The notes beneath the pieces were generated by a model. That model was not told the origin of the DNA, made no database searches, and saw nothing but the letters and a program-made list of their open reading frames with translations. A stretch of 64,000 bases of DNA from an uncultured beta proteobacterium (GTDB lineage Bacteria > Pseudomonadota > Gammaproteobacteria > Burkholderiales > SG8-41), in NCBI GenBank assembly GCA_903893565.1, contig CAITMU010000125.1:20578-84577 (forward strand). Direction: 5' to 3'. Of the stretch, positions 1,999 through 47,890 are shown piece after piece. A program made the translations under genes and the position numbers. The stretch's first letter is position 1, and the number at the start of each line of letters is the position of its first letter.

Positions 1999-2775
1999 AT
2001 GTATATCGATTCACACTGTCATCTGGATTTTCCGGATTTAGTTGGACGCCTCGATGAAATATTACACCGAATGCAGGAAAACTCGGTGGATCGGGCCCTT
2101 TGCGTGAGTGTCAATCTGCAGGATTTTCCACAAGTGCTGGCCCTGGCAGAAAAGCATCCCCATTTGTATGCCTCAGTGGGTATTCATCCTGATTATCCGG
2201 ATGTTCCAGAAACCACGGTCGAAGAGTTAGTGCGTCTATCCCTGCACCCCAAAATCGTAGCGATTGGTGAAACCGGATTAGACTATTACCGGCTCACCGG
2301 TGACCTCGATTGGCAACGTGAGCGTTTTCGTATTCATATTCGTGCCGCCGTCAAAACTCAAAAGCCCTTGATTATTCATACGCGCTCATCAAGCGAAGAC
2401 ACCATTCGCTTGATGCAGGAGGAGGGGGCCAGTCAAGCCGGTGGTGTCATGCACTGCTTTACGGAGTCATGGGAGATTGCAGAGGCGGCCATGGCGATGG
2501 GGTTTTATATCTCTTTTTCTGGAATCGTGACTTTCAAAAGCGCTAAAGCCTTGAAAGAAGTCGCCCAAAAAATGCCCTTAGATCGCATGCTGATTGAAAC
2601 CGATTCACCCTATCTTGCCCCCGTGCCTTTTAGAGGTAAGATTAATGAGCCGGGCTATGTACGATATGTGGCAGAAGAAATTGCTCGCTTAAGGCAATGT
2701 CCGGTTGAGGATATTGCTGAGGCCACCAGTGCTAATTTTTTAAAATTATTCAAAATCAAGGAGGGGAGGGCATGA
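1999..2775 (+). CDS. TatD-family metal-dependent hydrolase (YcfH-like)
   Basis: N-terminal IDSHCHLD metal-binding motif, C-terminal LIETDSPYLAP, 258 aa. It follows holB, as in many proteobacteria. Confidence 0.9.
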   Translation: MYIDSHCHLDFPDLVGRLDEILHRMQENSVDRALCVSVNLQDFPQVLALAEKHPHLYASVGIHPDYPDVPETTVEELVRLSLHPKIVAIGETGLDYYRLTGDLDWQRERFRIHIRAAVKTQKPLIIHTRSSSEDTIRLMQEEGASQAGGVMHCFTESWEIAEAAMAMGFYISFSGIVTFKSAKALKEVAQKMPLDRMLIETDSPYLAPVPFRGKINEPGYVRYVAEEIARLRQCPVEDIAEATSANFLKLFKIKEGRA

Positions 2776-3425
2776 TCCAATGGCTACCGAAGGTGTTGTT
2801 GTCCATCGCATTGTTAGGCCTAACAGGTGTTTACGCGCCGCTCATACAGGCTGACACCTATAACGATGTTTTACGTGCCGTTGAAATGAATTTTGCAAAA
2901 GAAGTCAATGGATTACTTAAAAAAGGGGTCGATGTTGATACCACCAATCAGGAGGGCGAAAGCTTACTTTTAATGGCATGCAAAGCGGGCAATCGCGATG
3001 TGGTTGAAGTTTTGTTAAATGCCAAGGCTAACGTTAATCTTCTGAATCAATGGGGCGAATCAGCGATTATGTTAGCGTCCTTAAAAGGATATACCTCAAT
3101 TGTAAAATTACTGCATAGTCATGGCGCCCACATTGAGAAGCGAGGATGGAACGCATTCATGTATGCCGCGGCTAATGGGCACTTAGACATCTTGCGGTTT
3201 TTGTTTGAACAGGGGGCAAAACTAAATTCATATTCTGAAAACGGCACTACGGCGCTGATGATGGCGGCTCGAGAAGGACAAACTGAAGCTGTTTTATGGC
3301 TCATGTCTAAAGGGGCCGATATTAATCACAAGTCAGACAGTGGTTATACCCCGATGAAAGTGGCTAAGATGAGGGGCATGGAGGATATTGTGAAATTATT
3401 ATCCAAGGCGGGGGCCAAAGAATAA
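2772..3425 (+). CDS. Secreted ankyrin-repeat protein
   Basis: N-terminal signal peptide (LLSIALLGLTGVYAPLIQA) followed by about five ankyrin repeats (for example GESLLLMACKAGNRDVVEVLL, GTTALMMAAREGQTEAVLWLMSKGADIN). The start overlaps the tatD stop (ATGA). Confidence 0.85.
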   Translation: MIQWLPKVLLSIALLGLTGVYAPLIQADTYNDVLRAVEMNFAKEVNGLLKKGVDVDTTNQEGESLLLMACKAGNRDVVEVLLNAKANVNLLNQWGESAIMLASLKGYTSIVKLLHSHGAHIEKRGWNAFMYAAANGHLDILRFLFEQGAKLNSYSENGTTALMMAAREGQTEAVLWLMSKGADINHKSDSGYTPMKVAKMRGMEDIVKLLSKAGAKE

Positions 3426-3554
3426 GGCTATTTTTGGATATAGAAAAATTGATCAAACCAAGCAGGGGTAATACGACAGAATGCAGCTATGTGTTGGTAT
3501 TTATAATGTAATAAAATTATATAGTTTGAATGTTTCTGTCCTACACTGTATTCA

Positions 3555-3593
3555 TTGACACGACTCTCTAATATGTACATAATAATGTACATA
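3555..3593 (+). promoter_or_regulatory. Near-consensus sigma70 promoter with overlapping direct-repeat operator, upstream of the toxin-antitoxin operon
   Basis: TTGACA (3555-3560), a 17-nt spacer, then CATAAT (3578-3583). ATGTACATA occurs twice (3573-3581 and 3585-3593, 12 bp apart), and each copy contains the palindrome TGTACA. An AAGGGG RBS and the ATG at 3609 follow. Confidence 0.5.
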
Positions 3594-3608
3594 TTTACAA
3601 GGGGTTTT

Positions 3609-3833
3609 ATGCGGGAAGCTACGTTCACCATGTTGCGCAATCACGCCAAGGATTATTTTGATGCCGTCGAAGGGGGGGATACGGTTCGTATCTTTCGCAA
3701 CGGCAAAGCCATTGCCGAAATTGTGCCGGTCCGTTCGGGTGTTCCATCCTGGAAAAGGCAAGCCACACCCTTGACGGTTAAGGGCTTGTCATTGAGTCGG
3801 GAAATACTGAGCGATCGTGAAAAGTCGGCGTGA
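3609..3833 (+). CDS. Type II antitoxin, Phd/YefM-like (partner of the PIN toxin)
   Basis: 74 aa (MREATFTMLRNHAKDYFDAVEGGDTVRIFRNGKAIAEIVP...), an N-terminal fold typical of Phd/YefM antitoxins. There is a good RBS, and the stop overlaps the toxin GTG start (GTGA). The longer ORF-track start at 3555 would begin inside the promoter. Confidence 0.8.
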   Translation: MREATFTMLRNHAKDYFDAVEGGDTVRIFRNGKAIAEIVPVRSGVPSWKRQATPLTVKGLSLSREILSDREKSA

Positions 3834-4246
3834 AGGTATTTCTGGATACCTCGGCTTTTGCGAAGCGATATGTTGCAGAGCAAGGATCGGACAAAGTGTT
3901 AGAGTTGTGCCAGCAGGCAGATAGTCTCGTCGTTAGTGTCATTTGCCTACCGGAATTAATCTCCACGCTGTCCCGCCTTCTACGGGAAAAGAAATTCGCC
4001 AAAGCGGATTACCAAAAACTGAAGGCTGAGGCGATGGCGGATCTGGCGGATGCCGACATCTGCCTGATCACACCGGACATTCTGGTCTCAGTGGTTCCCC
4101 TGCTGGAGACGTATCCACTTCGAGCAATGGATGCCCTTCATATAGCCTGTGTGCTTGCCGTCAAGCCTGACATTTTTATTTCGGCTGACCATAGGCAACT
4201 TTCGGCAGCACGAATGGCGGGGCTCAAGATTGTTGATGTGTCATGA
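3830..4246 (+). CDS. vapC: PIN-domain ribonuclease toxin (VapC family)
   Basis: 138 aa with the four PIN acidic positions in the expected context: FLDTSA (D6), LPELIS, RAMDALHIA and ISADHRQ. It has a 4-nt overlap with the upstream antitoxin. Confidence 0.9.
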   Translation: MKVFLDTSAFAKRYVAEQGSDKVLELCQQADSLVVSVICLPELISTLSRLLREKKFAKADYQKLKAEAMADLADADICLITPDILVSVVPLLETYPLRAMDALHIACVLAVKPDIFISADHRQLSAARMAGLKIVDVS

Positions 4247-4315
4247 GTCTCTAACGCAAATAAAAGGCGCTGTCCGGCCAAAAGATGCATTTGAGCACCT
4301 CAACTCCACATTAGC

Positions 4316-4513
4316 CCTCAAGAGATAGCATGGAGCCATTCGAGGAGAATTGTCCCATCCCATCAGCACACGAGAAATGTTACTGAGGCTCGCTATTTTT
4401 TGATTCAGTTTCTGCTCAATCAGTGCAATCTCTCCAAGCGGGCGATTGCTGAATCGATTGGCGTGAGTCCTGAAGTGGACCCCATCTTCTCGCAACACTA
4501 TCAATTACCATAA
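4316..4513 (+). pseudogene. Start-less remnant of a helix-turn-helix gene (possible recombinase or transposase accessory fragment)
   Basis: An open frame with no ATG reads ...RYFLIQFLLNQCNLSKRAIAESIGVSPEVDPIFSQHYQLP*. The segment LSKRAIAESIGVSPE looks like an HTH motif. It is flanked by non-coding AT-rich DNA and ends 70 bp before the dif-like site. Confidence 0.3.
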
Positions 4514-4582
4514 ATACAATGATGTGTTGCATTAAAAATGGTAGTTTTAAGCTAATTAAGCAACACTAATAAATGTACTATT

Positions 4583-4610
4583 GATTCGTATAATGTATAT
4601 TATGTAAAGT
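4583..4610 (+). other. dif: Candidate dif site (XerC/XerD chromosome dimer resolution site)
   Basis: GATTCGTATAA-TGTATA-TTATGTAAAGT matches 23/28 positions of the E. coli dif core GGTGCGCATAA-TGTATA-TTATGTTAAAT, including the entire central hexamer and the inner arm halves. It is intergenic and occurs once in the window. Confidence 0.7.
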
Positions 4611-4876
4611 AATGGATGGGGTAACATTCGATTATTCACATTAAGTTCGGGCTCTTATTGAACCCAACCCCAGGGACTCACCCCAACAAAACACGATACG
4701 CCCGCCACAAAGAGATCCGGCACAGGAAAAACGGACGTCAAACAAACTCTATTCTGCGTGAATTGAAAATTACTTTAGATTACGTTCATGTAATACCGGA
4801 TAATCGAAATAAAGTGTTATAGAATTCAAACGCAATTTGAATAATTGCTACAACAATAAGAATGCAATAAATACCT

Positions 4877-5860
4877 ATGAGAAATAAAAATATGGAGGAA
4901 ACCCTATTGATCATCCTGTTAAGCTTTGTGGGACTCATGATGATGAATCCTGCTGTGGCTCTTGATTACCCTAATCGTCATATAAGACTAGTCGTGCCAT
5001 GGCCTCCTGGCGGAGGCATTGATATTACAGCGCGTGCTATAAGCCCGAAGTTAACAGAAAATTTAGGTCAATCGGTGATAATCGATAACCGTCCCGGTGC
5101 CGCTGGCATGATCGGCACCGATGCGACTGCACGGGCTGCACCGGATGGATATACCTTAATATTAGGTGCAGCCGGTCCACATGCGATATTGCCACTGTTA
5201 AATCCAAAGTGCCCCTACGGACTGAAAGAATTTGACGAAGTGATCCATTTCGCAGATACATTCTATGTCATGGTCGTTAACCCTTCCCTTCCCATCAATA
5301 CCGTTGAGCAATTGATTCAAGCCGCGAAGTTAAAACCAGGTGAATTAACGATCGGATCTTCCGGTTCAGCAACCCCAGCCTTTATCTCGGGTGAATTGTT
5401 TCGTGTTCGATCCGGTGTCAATCTCAATCCTGTTTTCTACAAAGGCGCTGGCACACCAGTGCTGGAAGTGATGGCCGGTCAGATTTCAATGACCATTGAG
5501 ACGATTTCACCGATATTGCCTTACGTTCAAAGCAAAAAATTAAGAGCGCTTGCGATGACCGCATCGCAGCGATCCAATCAAATTCCTACAGTGCCAACCT
5601 TTGCTGAATCAGGTTTTCCTGGTTTTGAAGTGGTTAATTGGTATGGAATTTTAGTCCCCGCAAAAACCCCCTCCACCATCATTCAAAGATTAAATAAAGA
5701 ATTGACCTCTCTTATCAAAATCCCTGAAGTGCATGACCGATTAGTGGGATTTGGATTAGAGGTTTTTACAAGCACTGCTGAAGAGTTTACGAAATTTCGA
5801 AAACTTGACATGGTTAAATGGGCAAAAATCATTAAGGATATCAATTTACAATATCAATAA
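4877..5860 (+). CDS. Bug/TctC-family periplasmic solute-binding protein (tripartite tricarboxylate transporter receptor)
   Basis: About 325 aa with a signal peptide and family-typical segments (YPNRHIRLVVPWPPGGGIDITAR, DNRPGAAGMIG, APDGYTL, YKGAG). It is paralogous to the ORFs at 37211 and 46910. Confidence 0.9.
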   Translation: MRNKNMEETLLIILLSFVGLMMMNPAVALDYPNRHIRLVVPWPPGGGIDITARAISPKLTENLGQSVIIDNRPGAAGMIGTDATARAAPDGYTLILGAAGPHAILPLLNPKCPYGLKEFDEVIHFADTFYVMVVNPSLPINTVEQLIQAAKLKPGELTIGSSGSATPAFISGELFRVRSGVNLNPVFYKGAGTPVLEVMAGQISMTIETISPILPYVQSKKLRALAMTASQRSNQIPTVPTFAESGFPGFEVVNWYGILVPAKTPSTIIQRLNKELTSLIKIPEVHDRLVGFGLEVFTSTAEEFTKFRKLDMVKWAKIIKDINLQYQ

Positions 5861-5917
5861 ATGATCTAAAGCCTTTAGGAGAAATGCTTTTTCAAAGACG
5901 CTGAAATGACGGCCTTA

Positions 5918-6709
5918 TTAAAGATCAATTCCATAATCTTGTTTGGCTTTTTTCATCACGTCAGGGCCAGGCATTTGATAGAGCATTTTTCGACTCACGA
6001 CCGTACCCATGATTTTATGAAGTTTAACGGCCGTCTCCGTCATTTTTATTAGCATGGCTAATCCGTCGACGATTAAGGCCCCTTCTATTTCTCTAAGCCC
6101 TCGCCTCGCTTGCATAACGGCATGTGAGCCACAAGGAATGATGACCTCTGCACCGGCTCTGACGGCTCTTTTTGCCGCAAGATCAAATTCGTTCATAATC
6201 CTTTCATGCGCCTTAGGATCAATAAATCCTTGCCGAAAATCAGTTAAATCTGGAATGTTCATCGCTTCAATAGACGCTAAGCGATCAGTAAGGCCATAGA
6301 GCATTAATTTTTGCTCATAAGACAGGGCAAATTTAGGATTGGGCGTTATGAGTGAAAAACGTCTTCCCATCATGCAAGCCATGAGAGCCGTTGTTTCCAG
6401 AAAACCCATAACGGGAATATCAAGAATTTCTCGCGCTTCGACTAAGGCTGGATCGGTGGAATTAAGACTCACGAATGCGTCGTAGCGTTTTTCTCCAGTC
6501 GCGGCTTTGCATTTTAAAACGTTTTCAATAATATCAGGCATGTCGATAGCCTGGAAAAAACGAAACTGTTCTCCTAGACCCCCTTTAGCCGTGCCATGCA
6601 CTTCAATCTCAACGCCCGGGTCGGCTATGGATCGAAGGTGTTGCTCTAAGGCTTCGTGAAAATTAGGATTTCTTTGTCGAGATGAAAATACCTGAACCCA
6701 TAATCGCAT
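5918..6709 (-). CDS. Asp/Glu/hydantoin-racemase-family protein
   Basis: About 263 aa with the racemase-like two-domain pattern (DAFVSLNSTDPALVEAREILDIPVMG ... AEVIIPCGSH). The start is set at the ATG at 6709 (MRLWVQV), which has a GGGGGG RBS. The longer ORF would overlap the upstream gene. Confidence 0.7.
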   Translation of the reverse strand: MRLWVQVFSSRQRNPNFHEALEQHLRSIADPGVEIEVHGTAKGGLGEQFRFFQAIDMPDIIENVLKCKAATGEKRYDAFVSLNSTDPALVEAREILDIPVMGFLETTALMACMMGRRFSLITPNPKFALSYEQKLMLYGLTDRLASIEAMNIPDLTDFRQGFIDPKAHERIMNEFDLAAKRAVRAGAEVIIPCGSHAVMQARRGLREIEGALIVDGLAMLIKMTETAVKLHKIMGTVVSRKMLYQMPGPDVMKKAKQDYGIDL

Positions 6710-37210: not shown

Positions 37211-38194
37211 TCATTCAATTTTTAAGCCAATGGCTCGAACAATTTTTCCATATTTTTCAATTTCAGATTTAAAGTAATTGAGCATCTGAGCGGCATTGCG
37301 GCTATTGGTTTCTACACCCAGGGCTGAGAAGCGCTCTTTTAAATCAACCGCCGAAACCGCTTTTGCCATATCCCGATCCAATCGATTGATGACCTCCTGC
37401 GGAGTGGCTGCGGGAACGAAAACAGCGTTCCATAACACATGTTCGTAGCCCGTTACTCCGGCCTCATCCATCGTCATGATATCGGGGGCGATGGAGGATC
37501 GTTTAGCGGTGGTGACGGCTAAACCGCGTACTTTGGCGTTTCGCACATGAGGCAATCCTGCCGCCATACCTGAAAAATAAGCCGCAATTTGACCATTAAT
37601 GACGTCGACTAAGGCTTGGCCACCTCCCTTGTAAGGGATGTGCTGCATCTGTGCCCCAGTCATCGAACGGAACAATTCGTAGGCGAAATGATCCGAATTG
37701 CCATTACCCGATGAGGCCATATTTAAAGCGCCCGATTTGGACTTAGCTAGCGTAATGAGATCTTTGACCGAATGAATCGGTAGGGTGATATTAACGACCA
37801 ATAGATGGGGGCCTTCGACAGACTGACCCACGGGGGTGAGATCGCGAAGCGCGTCATAAGACAACTTGTCATAAGCCGTATAAGCCACGGCGATACCGGT
37901 GTTAGCATATAAAGAGATATAGCCGTCGGGCGAGGATTTGGCAACGTAATCCGCAGCAATATTGGCCCCTGCACCGGGTCGATTTTCAAATACGACCGAT
38001 TGACCGAGTGAATCAGACATCTTTTGCGCGACAAGACGCCCGATCACATCACTGGAGCTACCCGCAGGAAAGCCTATGATCATACGTAAGCTTTTCTGTG
38101 GGAACCCTGTTGCGGCCCATAAGGGCCTACCCCCTAAAAGCCCCATGATACAAAGGGCTATGAGGGGGAAGTGTCCACGCCTGATGCGAGGCAT
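37211..38194 (-). CDS. Bug/TctC-family periplasmic solute-binding protein
   Basis: Signal peptide, then FPQKSLRMIIGFPAGSSSDVIGR, ENRPGAGANI, SPDGY and YKGGGQ. It is a paralog of the ORFs at 4877 and 46910. Confidence 0.9.
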   Translation of the reverse strand: MPRIRRGHFPLIALCIMGLLGGRPLWAATGFPQKSLRMIIGFPAGSSSDVIGRLVAQKMSDSLGQSVVFENRPGAGANIAADYVAKSSPDGYISLYANTGIAVAYTAYDKLSYDALRDLTPVGQSVEGPHLLVVNITLPIHSVKDLITLAKSKSGALNMASSGNGNSDHFAYELFRSMTGAQMQHIPYKGGGQALVDVINGQIAAYFSGMAAGLPHVRNAKVRGLAVTTAKRSSIAPDIMTMDEAGVTGYEHVLWNAVFVPAATPQEVINRLDRDMAKAVSAVDLKERFSALGVETNSRNAAQMLNYFKSEIEKYGKIVRAIGLKIE

Positions 38195-42138: not shown

Positions 42139-42390
42139 AACTTAAATATTTCCTTTAAAACCAATGAGTTAATTATTCTCGCTGGTCTTTCAATCTCACA
42201 TTTCACCGGGCCCGATGGCAAGAAAAATCTCGGTTTTGCCGATGTCAAAAAATAAACCCTTCATTAAAGGCTCAAGAACTTTGTTCAATCGGGCCGATGT
42301 TAGGTTTGCCTTGGGTTAGCTGTTTGACCCATAAACTAGCTTTCGTTTTTTTCCTTTGGACTTTCTTTGGGTCTAGTAGGGGTCGATTTA

Positions 42391-42510
42391 AAAAGAGTAT
42401 TACACCCTGATTTTAATTGTCTGTATTTAATTTAAAACAATCGAAGGTATAAAAGAGTATTACACCCTGATTTTAATTGTCTGTATTTAATTTAAAACAA
42501 TCGAAGGTAT
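42391..42510. repeat. Perfect 60-bp tandem direct duplication (2 copies)
   Basis: The unit aaaagagtattacaccctgattttaattgtctgtatttaatttaaaacaatcgaaggtat occupies 42391-42450 and recurs without mismatch at 42451-42510. Confidence 0.95.
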
Positions 42511-42541
42511 ATTACTTTTAATACTTTTTAATTTTAACACA

Positions 42542-42606
42542 CCCCCTTTCCCCCTCTGCTTCTGCTTTCCCTTCTCTTTTTCCCTTCCCCCCCTTCTACC
42601 CCCCCT
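42542..42606. repeat. 65-nt polypyrimidine tract with six C-runs on the + strand (G-runs on the - strand)
   Basis: There are only 3 purines in 65 nt. The C-runs are C5 (42542-46), C5 (42550-54), C3 (42569-71), C3 (42582-84), C7 (42587-93) and C7 (42599-605). Confidence 0.9.
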
Positions 42607-42824
42607 ATTAATGAATCGTATCGAATATATTATGGGCCCCAATAACAATTTAAAAAAATAGATGGAGAGTAAGGTTTTTGTAAGGTTGGCATAGGCATCA
42701 TGGCTTAACGATGAAGGATTAATTTTTTAGTGGTATAAATTTTCAAAAACCCAAAATAAAGTAAAAAACACCTTTAAGTCATCATACTCAGTTAGTCGTT
42801 AGGTTAATGATAAGGAGCTGTATC

Positions 42825-43421
42825 ATGAAAAAGATGGCATGGTTTACATTCGCATCAATGAGCTTACTCATGTTATTGGTCTCAGATGTCAACGCCCGCC
42901 TCTCCAATGGGAATGGGGGCAATGGAGCAAAAGCAGGTCGTGCCGCCAATGGTATGCAGGGGGTAAATGTTGCGCACGCGGCCAATGTTGCGCCAGTGGC
43001 AAATCGTGCCCCTGTGGCAAATCGTACGCTCGTGGTTAGTCGCGCAACGGTAGCCAATCTATCCCATGTCACAAATGGGCGACATGGGATACGTGGAAGT
43101 GTTTATATCAGCGCTCCTTTTTTTGGGGTTAGTCCCTTGAATTACTATCCGAGTGCTTATGACTCAGCCTATTACTCGGCCCCTATCGGGGTTCAGCAAT
43201 CCAATGGGTATGTGGAACAAATTGCCCTAAGTTATAACGACTCCCCAATGCCCAACGAAAGTTTCCCCGTCGCGCCTTCTACGATTTCCATGTCGCCTCC
43301 CATCGCAAGCGAGCCGTCATGGTTTTACTGCATGGATACCAAAACCTATTACCCCTACGTTCAGACTTGCCAGTCACCTTGGCAACGTGTAACGCCCCAA
43401 ATCCTGCAACCTTCTTATTAA
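42825..43421 (+). CDS. Small secreted Tyr/Pro-rich protein with a C-terminal WFYC...YYPYVQTC...W motif, copy 1 (has a hexapeptide-repeat insert)
   Basis: AAGGAG RBS 7 nt before the ATG. Signal peptide MKKMAWFTFASMSLLMLLVSDVNA. The C-terminal 28 residues are identical to copy 2. 198 aa. Confidence 0.7.
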   Translation: MKKMAWFTFASMSLLMLLVSDVNARLSNGNGGNGAKAGRAANGMQGVNVAHAANVAPVANRAPVANRTLVVSRATVANLSHVTNGRHGIRGSVYISAPFFGVSPLNYYPSAYDSAYYSAPIGVQQSNGYVEQIALSYNDSPMPNESFPVAPSTISMSPPIASEPSWFYCMDTKTYYPYVQTCQSPWQRVTPQILQPSY

Positions 43422-43635
43422 ACGCCTCATGAATGCCCTTAACTTGAAATTGACTGAAAAAGCCCTCTTTATGTTGAACGTTCTGTCGACGCCTGTGTAC
43501 TAATACCCGAGCATGAGAGTAAAAAAGATTATGTTGATGTAGATACAATTAGTAACAAAAAACCAAGCATCCAGAGCAAACGATATTTTAAAATTGCACT
43601 CAAAGTCAGTAGATGAATAAAAAAGGAGTCTTATC

Positions 43636-44052
43636 ATGAAAAAGATCGTATTGTTGGCCTTAACTGCAATGAGCTTAATCATGTTACTGGGCAGTAACGC
43701 CAACGCGCGCTACTATGGGCATGGTCATGGTCATGTGGGGATATACTTAGGCGCGCCCTTTATTGGAGTGAATCCATGGGGTTATTATCCGAGTCCTTAT
43801 TACTCTCCCTACTACACGCCACCGGTTGTCATTCAGCAGCCCAATGTGTATGTGGAACAAGCGGCTCCAAGCTATAATTATGCCCCGATACCCAACGCGA
43901 GCCCCTCTACCCCGCCCCCTACGACGGCTATGGCGCCCCAAGCCGGTGTAGACCATTCCTGGTTTTACTGTATGGATACCAAAACCTATTACCCTTACGT
44001 TCAAACGTGCCAATCGCCCTGGCAACGTGTAACGCCACAACCCCCACGTTAA
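43636..44052 (+). CDS. Small secreted Tyr/Pro-rich protein with a C-terminal WFYC...YYPYVQTC...W motif, copy 2
   Basis: AAGGAG-type RBS and the same start context as copy 1 (ATGAAAAAGAT). Signal peptide MKKIVLLALTAMSLIMLLGSNANA, then a GHGHGH and Y/P-rich mature part. 138 aa. Confidence 0.75.
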   Translation: MKKIVLLALTAMSLIMLLGSNANARYYGHGHGHVGIYLGAPFIGVNPWGYYPSPYYSPYYTPPVVIQQPNVYVEQAAPSYNYAPIPNASPSTPPPTTAMAPQAGVDHSWFYCMDTKTYYPYVQTCQSPWQRVTPQPPR

Positions 44053-44118
44053 CCATTTAAAGTATTGATAGCCTTTATTCAATTTTGGGTTGAATGACAT
44101 TCTAGAAAGGTAAATGAA

Positions 44119-44664
44119 ATGAAATTGGCATACAAACCCCTCTTCGCCATCCTTGCCGTATCGTTGACCGGTTGCGTGAGCGTTCCAACGGGACCCTCAC
44201 GTCTAGCCTTACCAGGCAATGGCAAAAGCTTTGAACAATTCCAGGGCGATGACTTTTATTGCCGGCAATACGCTCAACAGTCCTCCGGTGTCTCGACTGC
44301 GAATGCCCAGCAAAATAGCGCTATACAAAGTGCTACTGTAGGCACTTTAGTCGGTGCTGCCGCTGGGGCACTGATCGGGGGCAATAGTCGAAGTGCTGGG
44401 ACCGGTGCAGGAGTGGGTTTACTCTTCGGGGCGGCTTCTGGCGCAAATGCCGGAGAACGTTCTGCCTATATGACCCAAAAACGATATGATGACGGTTATA
44501 CCCAATGTATGTATGCCAAGGGACATAAAGTCTCGGTTCCTGCGGGTATGGCACGTCAATACGAACCCGCGGTGCAACGCCCAACCTATCCTACTGCCCC
44601 CTCCTATCAATATTTACCCCCACCACCCCCAGGTTCAGCCCCTCCCCCCACCTCGACGAAGTAA
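44119..44664 (+). CDS. Glycine-zipper lipoprotein, copy 1 (Pro-rich C-terminal tail)
   Basis: Lipobox LTGC. Gly-zipper segment GTLVGAAAGALIGGNSRSAGTGAGVGLLFGAASGANAG. Conserved Cys pair (DDFYCRQY ... YTQCMYAKGHKV). The tail reads YLPPPPPGSAPPPTSTK. Confidence 0.8.
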   Translation: MKLAYKPLFAILAVSLTGCVSVPTGPSRLALPGNGKSFEQFQGDDFYCRQYAQQSSGVSTANAQQNSAIQSATVGTLVGAAAGALIGGNSRSAGTGAGVGLLFGAASGANAGERSAYMTQKRYDDGYTQCMYAKGHKVSVPAGMARQYEPAVQRPTYPTAPSYQYLPPPPPGSAPPPTSTK

Positions 44665-44717
44665 GTCATTTAAACGTTTTTTGCGTGGTCACGAGCGGGA
44701 ATTTCCGATTGATTTGA

Positions 44718-45043
44718 GTGGCTATTTGCTTAACCTTGATAGGGGTCCCCGTCGCACAGGCTCGGGTCGGCGTTGTCATTGGAGCCGGTCCCTAGGGTTA
44801 TTGTCCCGGCCCTTATTATTCCCCCCTACCCCTACCCATACCCATACCCATACCCATACCCCTAACTCTTACCCCCTTGTCGTTATGCAACAACCGAACG
44901 TGTATAGGGAATAATCGACCCCTCAGCCCGTATCAGATCCTTCCCGATACTCATGTCTCGCGTTCAAGGCGTATGACCCTGATGTCCAAACCTGTAGCAT
45001 GCATTGGTAAAAAGTTCCCCCTCCCCGCCCAAACCTTCATTAA
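44718..45043 (+). pseudogene. Decayed third copy of the secreted Tyr/Pro-rich motif protein
   Basis: Homology to copy 2 is spread over more than one frame. IGAGP*GYCPGPYYSP compares with IGVNPWGYYPSPYYSP, LVVMQQPNVYRE* with VVIQQPNVYVEQ, and YSCLAFKAYDPDVQTCSMHW*KVPPP with FYCMDTKTYYPYVQTCQSPWQRVTPQ. In-frame stops lie at 44793 (TAG), 44912 (TAA) and 45008 (TAA). The signal peptide is truncated. Confidence 0.6.
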
Positions 45044-45110
45044 CTTTGTTTTTGAAACTTGGGTTTTGTCTGTGTAGAATGCTCATACAATTGAAAAGGA
45101 GTGATTGAAA

Positions 45111-45554
45111 ATGGCAAATTTTTCTAAAGGGTTAATGGTATCTTTAGCCTTGATAGTGGTTGGCTGTGTCAGTGTCCCCACAGGCCCCTCTCATTTGGCA
45201 CTACCGGGCGAAGGTAAGAGTTTTGAGCAATTTCAGGTCGATGATTTTTCATGTCGTCAGTATGGCCAACAAGTCGCAGGCACTTCTACCAAAGAGGCGC
45301 AAGAAAATAGTGCGCTCAAAAGTGCGGCCATTGGAACTGCAGTGGGTGCAGCGGCCGGTGCGCTCTTAGGAGGCAATTCTAAAAGTGCCGGAGCGGGCGC
45401 TGGGATAGGACTTTTATTCGGTGCGACCACTGGGGCTGATGCTGGTGAGCGATCGGCTCATATGGCTCAAAGACGCTATGACGATGGCTATACGCAATGC
45501 ATGTATGCTAAAGGCCATAAAGTCTCTCTTCCAGGGGGGATGACCCATCGATGA
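45111..45554 (+). CDS. Glycine-zipper lipoprotein, copy 2
   Basis: AAGGAG RBS 9 nt upstream of the ATG at 45111. Lipobox VVGC. Collinear with copy 1 (CVSVPTGPSHLALPGEGKSFEQFQVDDFSCRQY ... RYDDGYTQCMYAKGHKVS) but lacking the Pro-rich tail. Confidence 0.8.
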   Translation: MANFSKGLMVSLALIVVGCVSVPTGPSHLALPGEGKSFEQFQVDDFSCRQYGQQVAGTSTKEAQENSALKSAAIGTAVGAAAGALLGGNSKSAGAGAGIGLLFGATTGADAGERSAHMAQRRYDDGYTQCMYAKGHKVSLPGGMTHR

Positions 45555-45582: not shown

Positions 45583-45602
45583 GAGGGATTGCTTTATCCC
45601 TC
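45583..45602. terminator. Hairpin between convergent genes (possible terminator)
   Basis: GAGGGAT (45583-89), a 6-nt loop, then ATCCCTC (45596-602), overlapping the amidase stop codon. The flanking T-runs are weak, so the terminator function is uncertain. Confidence 0.35.
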
Positions 45603-46909: not shown

Positions 46910-47890
46910 TTATTCTAATTTAGCACCAGAGGCTTTGGCGACTTTTTGCCATTTAATAATTTCCGATTGCAGGTAACTACTTAATGCCTCGGGCGAACTG
47001 GGAAACGGATCCACACCCAAGGAGGCTAGACGGGTTTTTATGTCGGGGATTTTTAAACTTGCGACGAGTTCACGGTTAAGCTTGTCATTTAAATCACGCG
47101 GTAAACGTGCAGGGGCAAACATGGCATACCAAGTGGTGGCCTCATAGCCCACGACCCCAGACTCAGCCACTGTGGGTAATTCGGGTAACGCGCTGGTGCG
47201 ATGTGCACCCGTGACGGCCAGTGCTCTTAAACGACCGCTTTGCACATTCGGCACCCCGGAGAGCATATTGTTAAACATGAGTGAAGTGTGCCCTGCCATT
47301 AGATCAATAGTGGCAGGAGATGCCCCTTTGTAAGGTACATGAACCATCTTCAGTCCTGCCATGGACAAAAACAGTTCCGCCGCCAAATGGGGAGCGCTGC
47401 CTGCACCTGAGGAAGCATAGATAAGCTGTCCAGGATGAGATTTAGATAACTTAATTAATTCTTTTATGGAACGAGCGGGAATAGACGGATGAATCACCAC
47501 GATGAGTGAAGAGGCCGCGATTTGCGAAATTGCCGTAAAGTCTTTCACCGGATCATAGGGCATCTTAGGGTAAATACTCGGATTAATACCCATCGAAGAA
47601 CTAGTCACTAACAAGGTATATCCATCAGGCGGTGATTTTGCCACCATGTCGGAACCAATAATGCTACCACTGCCCGCACGGTTATCTACGATGAACATTT
47701 GCCCCATGGCTTCGCTAAATTTTGGCGCTAAGGTTCTCGCCAATATATCGACTGGTCCGCTCGGTGCAAAAGGCACCACAATACGCACGGGTTTGACCGG
47801 ATAAACAGACTGCGCCCATGAGGGGACCCATGCCAGTAAGGTAACTAACGAATACAGCCAAGCTAATCGCTTTACCAAGGATTGGATCAC
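46910..47890 (-). CDS. Bug/TctC-family periplasmic solute-binding protein
   Basis: Signal peptide, then YPVKPVRIVVPFAPSGPVDILAR, DNRAGSGSII, PPDGYT and YKGASP. It lies upstream of, and co-oriented with, the amidase gene. Confidence 0.9.
   Translation of the reverse strand: MIQSLVKRLAWLYSLVTLLAWVPSWAQSVYPVKPVRIVVPFAPSGPVDILARTLAPKFSEAMGQMFIVDNRAGSGSIIGSDMVAKSPPDGYTLLVTSSSMGINPSIYPKMPYDPVKDFTAISQIAASSLIVVIHPSIPARSIKELIKLSKSHPGQLIYASSGAGSAPHLAAELFLSMAGLKMVHVPYKGASPATIDLMAGHTSLMFNNMLSGVPNVQSGRLRALAVTGAHRTSALPELPTVAESGVVGYEATTWYAMFAPARLPRDLNDKLNRELVASLKIPDIKTRLASLGVDPFPSSPEALSSYLQSEIIKWQKVAKASGAKLE

Follow-up and report, generated by a model that had tools for sequence, protein, structure and literature searches.

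A putative two-gene envelope operon of Betaproteobacteria, locally amplified, that pairs a secreted two-cysteine protein with a YMGG-type glycine-zipper lipoprotein

Introduction

Glycine-zipper lipoproteins have only recently been recognised as stabilisers of the Escherichia coli outer membrane. SlyB and YfgH, two such lipoproteins, stabilise this membrane under stress, YfgH is itself induced by outer-membrane stress, and the roles of these proteins outside E. coli are relatively unexplored (bioRxiv 10.64898/2025.12.22.696046). The hallmarks of this SlyB/YfgH-like function are oligomeric rings or nanodomains that form in the outer membrane under stress, and deletion mutants that are sensitive to SDS/EDTA. 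SlyB has been described as part of the PhoPQ pathway. Here, we analyse a locus at positions 42825–45554 of a 64-kb stretch of DNA (hereafter the window; contig CAITMU010000125.1 of assembly GCA_903893565.1) from an uncultured betaproteobacterium with a G+C content of ~48%. The locus encodes two types of envelope protein on the plus strand: a secreted Tyr/Pro-rich protein with two cysteines (P) and a glycine-zipper lipoprotein (GZ). Our best reading of the sequences is a self-contained bicistronic P-GZ operon, conserved over the Betaproteobacteria and sporadic elsewhere.

Among described proteins, SlyB/Pcp, YfgH, OsmB, YcfJ and YmgG of the Enterobacteria, all outer-membrane stress lipoproteins of the Pfam Gly-zipper clan, are, like GZ, small lipoproteins with a helical hairpin of GxxxG repeats. 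Compared with the SlyB group, GZ adds conserved Cys-pair helices that flank the zipper and a polyproline tail, and it is nearly always encoded with a dedicated upstream partner gene; to our knowledge, no such gene accompanies SlyB, YfgH or OsmB. Two further systems have an arrangement of a comparable kind. In E. coli ymgG-ymgD, a YMGG-type glycine-zipper protein is encoded beside a small Sec-exported protein, reportedly under envelope-stress (Rcs) control, and in the H1 type VI secretion system (T6SS) of Pseudomonas aeruginosa the outer-membrane lipoprotein TagQ anchors the periplasmic partner TagR.

Results

P and GZ genes are paired across genomes

We scanned genomes, one per species, with an alignment of the C-terminal block of P, which returned 80 loci, and metagenome contigs with GZ, which gave 80 further loci; the pooled set comprises 162 unrelated loci. 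An open reading frame (ORF) of the GZ family lies directly downstream of P, on the same strand, in 67 of the 80 loci from the P scan. Conversely, P is directly upstream of GZ for 141 of the 152 GZ genes in the pooled loci, and five or more of the remaining GZ genes are at a contig end with no upstream sequence. The two genes are closely spaced, with a median gap of 14 nt (interquartile range 7–19). The initial annotation, made from the window alone, had proposed that the two families are partners, with a lack of co-occurrence beyond this genome as the refuting condition; they do co-occur elsewhere, in both directions, and this synteny supports a functional partnership of two envelope proteins that has been locally amplified here.

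The taxa returned by the P scan are mostly Burkholderiales, Rhodocyclales and other Betaproteobacteria, with a few metagenome-assembled genomes labelled Gammaproteobacteria, Nitrospiraceae, Sulfobium and Sphingomonadaceae. The pair is present in culturable Burkholderia cenocepacia, Paraburkholderia and Rahnella (on megaplasmids, where it is annotated as ‘hypothetical protein’ and ‘glycine zipper family protein’), and a GZ homologue is present in B. multivorans, which makes genetics feasible. Clustering of all flanking ORFs in the 80 loci revealed no third conserved gene, and no study of the P-GZ pair emerged from the literature, which was searched by motif, by YMGG-like protein and by OmpR in combination with Burkholderia.

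Two loci depart from the usual arrangement. In one (L060, 5734–6707), a canonical P gene is followed not by GZ but by a gene for MlaC (PF05494, phospholipid transport), a single case; suppressors of a slyB deletion map to the Mla pathway (YfgH preprint, bioRxiv 10.64898/2025.12.22.696046). In the other (L085, about 3000–5132), two tandem GZ genes occur without P, with a strong match to the upstream repeat element described below lying upstream of them on the opposite strand.

GZ is a YMGG-type lipoprotein with added cysteine helices

The window encodes two GZ proteins, GZ1 (44119–44664, plus strand, 181 residues) and GZ2 (45111–45554, plus strand, 147 residues), with the lipoboxes LTGC (+2 residue Val) and VVGC, respectively, as first read from the sequence. 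By profile score, both are members of the Pfam family Gly-zipper_YMGG (PF13441), with 33.7 bits for GZ1 (E 3e-8) and 34.0 bits for GZ2 (E 2.4e-8) against a gathering cut-off of 28.9; residues 66–109 of both proteins align to profile positions 1–44 of 45. The scores for PF05433 (Glycine zipper 2TM / SlyB-Pcp-17 kDa antigen), 18.8 and 16.2 bits, are under its cut-off of 24.2. Of the glycine-zipper models other than YMGG, none (2TM/Rick_17kDa, Gly-zipper_Omp, Gly-zipper_OmpA) scores GZ above threshold. On these scores, we place GZ in the same clan-level fold type as PF05433 and outside that family itself.

GZ relatives form more than 2,300 clusters at 90% identity. The names among the few named clusters are ‘YMGG-like glycine zipper-containing protein’ (also the name of the GZ2 orthologue), ‘Glycine-zipper domain’ and ‘outer membrane lipoprotein SlyB’. 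The family alignment has a fixed architecture: the lipobox Cys; PTGPS..ALPG.GK.F.QF..DD..CRQYA; the zipper; QRRYD.GY.QCMYAKG; and a C-terminal tail that closes with a polyproline run, often PPPPGSAPPPPSAIVR. The motifs earlier picked out from GZ1 and GZ2 are conserved family-wide.

Features were counted in 127 non-redundant members of the GZ family and in 81 P proteins. All 127 GZ members have a lipobox, defined as a signal peptide ending in [LVI][ASTVI][GAS]C, and the +2 residue is A, V, T, M, S, L or I, never Asp. GZ is accordingly predicted, from its signal sequence, to be made as an Lpp-type lipoprotein, a substrate of signal peptidase II, with an outer-membrane-type sorting signal. Exactly two further Cys residues, 80–87 residues apart, are present in 116 of the 127. 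In GZ1, an N-terminal helix bears Cys48 and is followed by the Gly-zipper hairpin, a C-terminal helix bearing Cys130 and the polyproline tail. The AlphaFold2 monomer is confident only for the two Cys-bearing helices (residues 38–55 and 115–133); it fits an arrangement in which a Cys48–Cys130 disulfide would clamp the hairpin at its base.

A Foldseek search of the GZ model, which is mostly low-confidence, gave no match in the PDB at E<=0.001, and a PDB profile search with GZ found only the Gly-zipper stretch of a Legionella Dot/Icm OmpA-family protein (E 0.009). In PHROGs, only GZ has matches, all weak and to phage Gly-rich or Gly-zipper-type families. These matches, and the existence of glycine-zipper toxins such as Caulobacter CdzC/D, would fit a membrane-active glycine-zipper protein at the core of a toxin-immunity, bacteriocin or phage/defence module. 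We regard this as extremely unlikely: GZ is a lipoprotein that is 50–70% identical across distant taxa, both proteins are under purifying selection, PADLOC gives no match and PHROGs none for P, and the genes are chromosomal, in a variable context with metabolic flanks and without transporter or processing genes.

P belongs to a large unnamed family with a small two-cysteine module

The canonical P protein of the locus is P2 (43636–44052, plus strand, 138 residues). It comprises a signal peptide (cleaved between ANA and R), HGHGH, a VGIYLGAP motif, a Tyr/Pro-rich disordered region, QQPNVYVEQ, a Pro-rich linker and a C-terminal module, WFYC-x12-C-x3-W-x2-V. The family follows the same order: a His-rich start and R.GV.IG.P are followed by a low-complexity stretch rich in Tyr and Pro, by PxVYVEQ, in which Tyr, Glu and Gln vary little or not at all, by a Pro/Ala/Gln linker and by an aromatic module of roughly 30 residues, of consensus W-Y-Y-C-x5-YYPYV-x2-C-x3-W-x2-V. 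Exactly two Cys are found in 76 of the 81 P proteins, spaced by 13 residues in 76 of 76, and probably form a disulfide. The Cys pairs seen in the window are hence a feature of both families (76/81 for P and 116/127 for GZ).

At the 50% identity level, a profile of 25 P homologues identified 3,791 representative clusters with E<=1e-3 and, at the stricter threshold of E<=1e-10, 1,690, and a word-indexed profile search yielded at least 2,041 clusters at 90% identity, all of them named only ‘hypothetical protein’ and none with a Pfam domain. P has no Pfam-A match at E<=1, an NCBIfam match at chance level only, nothing in PHROGs or PADLOC, and only antibody CDR noise in a PDB sequence profile search. 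In the AlphaFold2 model of P2, only residues ~105–135 are confident (pLDDT ~90, four short strands), the remainder being at ~50, and Foldseek with this small domain within a disordered model found nothing in the PDB at E<=0.001. The module itself matches in Pfam only WWE (1 of 38 sequences, E 0.16) and has no relative among PDB sequences. We conclude from these searches that P and its C-terminal module are apparently undescribed, a large family with neither model nor name; its signal peptide and the AlphaFold2 model point to a Sec-exported, mostly disordered protein. The initial annotation had recognised both proteins only as recurrent uncharacterised envelope proteins and had suggested profile and structure searches. 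Such searches leave P without a family, place GZ in PF13441 and give no Foldseek match, and the database names agree, GZ being known only as ‘YMGG-like glycine zipper-containing protein’ or ‘glycine zipper family protein’.

The composition of P raises two other possible roles. At least two His residues occur in the 16 residues before R.GV in 73% of P proteins, often as HGHGH or HHHGGHHH runs. With the many Tyr residues, this would suit a periplasmic metal-binding or pH-sensing protein that buffers or senses metals such as Cu, Ni or Zn, for which GZ is a tether or hand-over partner at the outer membrane. About 11% of P proteins have no His there, however, and the runs differ in how long they are and where they lie; the 80 loci have no conserved neighbour for metal resistance or transport, and the upstream element resembles OmpR boxes (the comparison being with published OmpR motifs only). 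We find this role decidedly improbable. Secondly, Tyr and Pro make up one third of mature P ahead of the first Cys, this part is predicted to be disordered, the R.GV.IG.P segment is short and hydrophobic, and glycine-zipper proteins can form membrane assemblies. P might on these grounds be an adhesive or self-assembling surface or matrix protein, with GZ as its outer-membrane export or anchoring factor. That, too, is very unlikely in our judgement, as the same 80 loci show no conserved secretion system, usher or nucleator among their neighbours, GZ has no beta-barrel or pore-like domain, and the only export signal of P is Sec.

In sequence comparisons, the C-terminal module behaves like a domain in its own right. 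Several proteins contain it as a tandem duplicate, and we also observed it after Gly/Trp-rich repeats of the GWGWRG type, or in two tandem copies, in P0224, P0236, P0240, P0264 and P0290 and in loci L047, L049 and L050 (about 5590–6093). In two further loci (L078, 3823–4566; L079, 5371–6102), it is fused to a Spy/CpxP-type LTXXQ domain (PF07813, E 1e-10) with no adjacent GZ gene, and these fusions suggest a portable periplasmic targeting or docking domain.

An OmpR-box-like repeat precedes many of the operons

The 160 nt ahead of P, analysed for enriched k-mers, contain position-locked words. These belong to an element of two or three direct GTxACA repeats with exact 10-bp phasing (consensus GTCACAATTTGTGACAATTTGTTACCC), located 60–110 nt ahead of the P start codon. 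The last repeat abuts the −35 region, ~20 nt upstream of a TAGCAT-like −10 element, and in one clade the first two repeats form an everted palindrome, GTCACAATTTGTGAC. A strict half-site pair at a spacing of 10 is present in 24 of 124 upstream regions, where other spacings from 6 to 15 give 0–4, shuffles 0.2 and control windows 0.6%. With a position weight matrix for the triple repeat, the upstream regions of 53 of 122 other operons pass at a 1% false-positive threshold, as do 33–41% of held-out regions in two-fold cross-validation. The element is specific: across 1.17 Mb of loci, 44 of the 51 strong matches lie ahead of P, and 5 more are the same sites on the other strand.

In the window, the corresponding sequence is GATACAATTAGTAACA (43542–43557, plus strand), a direct repeat of two GWWACA half-sites 10 bp apart that ends 79 nt upstream of the P2 start codon. 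It is the sole match to GWWACANNNNGWWACA on either strand of the 64 kb, with 0.07 expected, and 7 of 100 shuffles reach one match. The GTxACA half-sites and their phasing match published OmpR motifs, namely GTTACATTTTGTTACAT and KWWGTTACAT of E. coli (PMC5438342) and TGTWACAW of Salmonella (PMC3586657). The element also has the sequence hallmarks of an OmpR promoter, with tandem GTTACA-type half-sites at 10-bp phasing upstream of the −35. From this likeness, we infer a putative OmpR-type control of the operon.

The locus holds one intact unit, an extra P copy and a decaying unit

The five elements lie in the order first proposed for them (P1, P2, GZ1, P3 as a pseudogene, and GZ2), and the motifs attributed to each are present. 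P1 (42825–43421, plus strand, 198 residues) is an additional secreted P protein whose signal peptide is cleaved between VNA and R; this site and the ANA site of P2 had both been read correctly. An Asn/Ala/Val-rich insertion, a Tyr/Pro-rich region and the two-Cys module follow, and there is no GZ gene directly after P1. The N-terminal insertion is specific to P1, missing from both P2 and the family consensus, and an 18-nt tandem repeat (2.2 copies, 42996–43035) encodes its VANRAP-type repeats. P1 and P2 have a common start context, AAGGAG-N7-ATGAAAAAGAT, so that the shared ribosome-binding site noted initially (AGGAG-N7-ATGAAAAAGAT) is real. They are also identical in amino acids over a C-terminal block of 28 residues, SWFYCMDTKTYYPYVQTCQSPWQRVTPQ, with its two Cys 13 residues apart.

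At the nucleotide level, the two copies of this block are separated by 9 synonymous changes and no non-synonymous one (for 16.3 synonymous and 67.7 non-synonymous sites), which argues that P1 and P2 are both translated and under strong purifying selection. pN/pS is 0.39 for P1/P2 and 0.23 for GZ1/GZ2. We also compared the locus with a close relative contig (L081), for which the dN/dS of P2, GZ1 and GZ2 is uninformative, with 0–2 differences only. Between P1 and its orthologue (2749–3342 of that contig), 31 changes are non-synonymous and 19 synonymous, a dN/dS of about 0.5, with the C-terminal module invariant despite divergence elsewhere. With 31 non-synonymous changes against 0–2 changes in P2, GZ1 and GZ2, P1 is a local divergence hotspot, whether through relaxed selection, diversifying selection or recombination.

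The closest relative of GZ1 is GZ2 and vice versa (71% identity), and likewise for P1 and P2; the amplification is therefore lineage-specific. The same gene layout recurs in close metagenome contigs, with no gene called at the position of P3. The unit has been duplicated in tandem in this genome, in line with the initial view that P2-GZ1 and P3-GZ2 look like duplicates of one unit.

P3 (44718–45031, plus strand) retains remnants of all P motifs across two frames. Alignment of the DNA to P1 and P2 and three-frame translations recover the signal peptide, R.GV.IG.P, QQPNVY.E and the two-Cys block, as a signal-peptide-like stretch, ARVGVVIGAGP, GYCPGPYYSP, PLVVMQQPNVYRE and YSCLAFKAYDPDVQTCSMHW.KVPPPRP. 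A frameshift, in-frame stops and the lack of an intact start mark it, by sequence, as a true pseudogene. Its former Tyr/Pro-rich region contains a (CCCATA)6.5 microsatellite (44823–44861). In the L081 contig (about 4730–4750), this hexanucleotide repeat is three units shorter, and we take the (CCCATA)n tract, derived from Tyr/Pro-coding sequence, to be actively slipping.

GZ2 lacks the polyproline tail that 97% of GZ family members have. A GGAG 9 nt upstream of the ATG at 45111 makes this ATG its likely start, in preference to the TTG at 45105. A consensus scan placed a candidate sigma-70-like promoter, TTGAAA-17-TAGAAT (45052–45080, plus strand, 10/12 matches), within the P3 remnant, and this could drive GZ2 independently. 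With P3 dead and the GZ2 tail lost, both members of the second unit seem to be in decay together. P2-GZ1 is the intact unit, which retains the box, and P1 is an extra, fast-evolving P copy.

Flanking sequence

The flanking genes are metabolic, encoding a dienelactone hydrolase, an MFS transporter, an amidase, a TctC receptor, an SDR and PhaC. Upstream, P1 and the divergent MFS transporter gene are set apart by 686 bp of A+T-rich intergenic sequence (42139–42824; ~40% G+C against ~48% locally). This region contains no Rfam match and no repeat element of the P2 type, and an Rfam scan found no family anywhere in the 64-kb window. Downstream, a pattern scan identified a candidate terminator-like stem-loop with a weak T-run (45583–45602, plus strand) between GZ2 and the convergent amidase gene. 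TctC/Bug receptor genes are near the pair in 35 of the 80 loci and occur twice in the window (37211–38194 and 46910–47890), a proximity that probably arises from their very high copy number in Burkholderiales and not from a functional link.

Discussion

A model for the P-GZ operon

We consider it somewhat more likely than not that P-GZ is an envelope operon under OmpR-type control whose two products act together at the outer membrane. An OmpR-type response regulator would bind the two or three GTxACA repeats next to the promoter and activate transcription, and the operon would then belong to a regulon for osmotic, acid or envelope stress. Both products would work on the periplasmic side of the outer membrane and most likely form a complex there. 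GZ would serve to anchor or remodel the membrane, like the stress lipoproteins of the SlyB/YfgH/OsmB group, with its hairpin base flanked by the two Cys-bearing helices, joined through a Cys48–Cys130 disulfide, and the polyproline tail at the end; P would be the soluble partner.

The two proteins could instead be co-expressed and act independently under envelope stress, GZ as a SlyB/OsmB-like stabiliser and P as a disordered periplasmic protectant or chaperone-like protein whose module docks on a general envelope component. We give this account appreciable but limited weight. Several observations favour it and count against a joint P-GZ function. None of the 437 proteins retrieved is a natural P-GZ fusion, GZ genes with no P ahead of them keep their polyproline tails, and the module is found without an adjacent GZ in canonical P genes that stand alone, in the LTXXQ fusions and in the Gly/Trp-rich proteins, so that its target need not be GZ. 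What speaks for partnership instead is the adjacency, at ~90% both ways and with ~14-nt gaps, across orders and even phyla, which is tighter than mere co-regulation would lead one to expect; in addition, the tail-less GZ copy in the window is the one with a decayed P partner, in this single case. A simple dependence of the GZ tail on a P partner was considered and is unsupported, given the tails of the GZ genes that lack one.

Other points weigh on the structural and regulatory parts of the model. The Gly-zipper hairpin of GZ is itself of low confidence in the AlphaFold2 model. At the chosen threshold, only about 40% of operons carry the repeat element and about 60% are without it, the site in the window has two repeats and a low score (2.5) on the three-repeat matrix, and the loci are related by descent, which inflates the counts and makes the cross-validation optimistic. 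Other OmpR-family regulators bind similar direct repeats, and RstA is one that could fit beside OmpR. Literature searches found no report of expression or binding for these genes.

A more specific version of the joint model is one we hold to be rather improbable. The P module would be an undescribed periplasmic docking domain for the polyproline tail of the cognate GZ, a disulfide-stabilised analogue of WW/SH3-polyproline recognition. Under OmpR control, it would fasten a disordered layer rich in His, Tyr and Pro to the outer membrane on its inner side, and it would also bring further periplasmic cargo, such as Spy/CpxP-like chaperones, to the membrane.

Comparison with known systems

WW domains bind polyproline and have a pair of Trp spaced by ~20 residues. 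They resemble the P module in its Trp-x19-Trp spacing, central YY, trailing Pro and short predicted strands, and in its having a partner, GZ, with a polyproline tail. Unlike WW domains, the module has a Cys pair. Homology was rejected, hhalign giving a probability of 5.3% with just 7 columns aligned, and these out of register (against an approximate WW alignment), and the likeness survives only as an analogy.

At the promoter, the P element is like those of the OmpR-activated ompF and ompC genes, with direct GTxACA-type repeats at 10-bp phasing, in two or three copies, the last of them next to the −35. It differs in that the P-GZ hosts are Betaproteobacteria and that one clade carries the everted palindrome. 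The predicted OmpR-type box nevertheless offers a regulatory handle on the operon.

TagQ was considered as an identity for GZ. GZ1 has a weak local match to the TagQ model (NCBIfam NF041250; 25.3 bits, E 8.6e-6), confined to the lipobox and the Gly-rich part. We rejected GZ as a T6SS lipoprotein, since the score compares with a 300-bit cut-off and T6SS genes are absent from the window flanks and from the conserved neighbourhood.

The ymgG-ymgD pair is similar to P-GZ in that a glycine-zipper gene adjoins the gene for a small exported protein. YmgD, however, is a folded Pfam family unrelated to P, which itself has no Pfam match; the gene order is the reverse of that in P-GZ; and YmgG is not known to have the Cys-bearing helices or the polyproline tail.

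With ~3,800 clusters at 50% identity, P is among the larger protein families that still have neither model nor name, and its two-Cys domain is small and modular. If true, a P-GZ complex would be a new envelope-stress architecture and grounds for new family and domain definitions. With the SlyB group, GZ shares an outer-membrane destination and stress-type two-component control, both predicted for GZ. Within the YMGG glycine-zipper family, its added Cys helices and tail set it apart as a subfamily of its own. This subfamily is abundant in Betaproteobacteria and is accompanied by a novel, obligate partner and by a predicted control element of the OmpR type.

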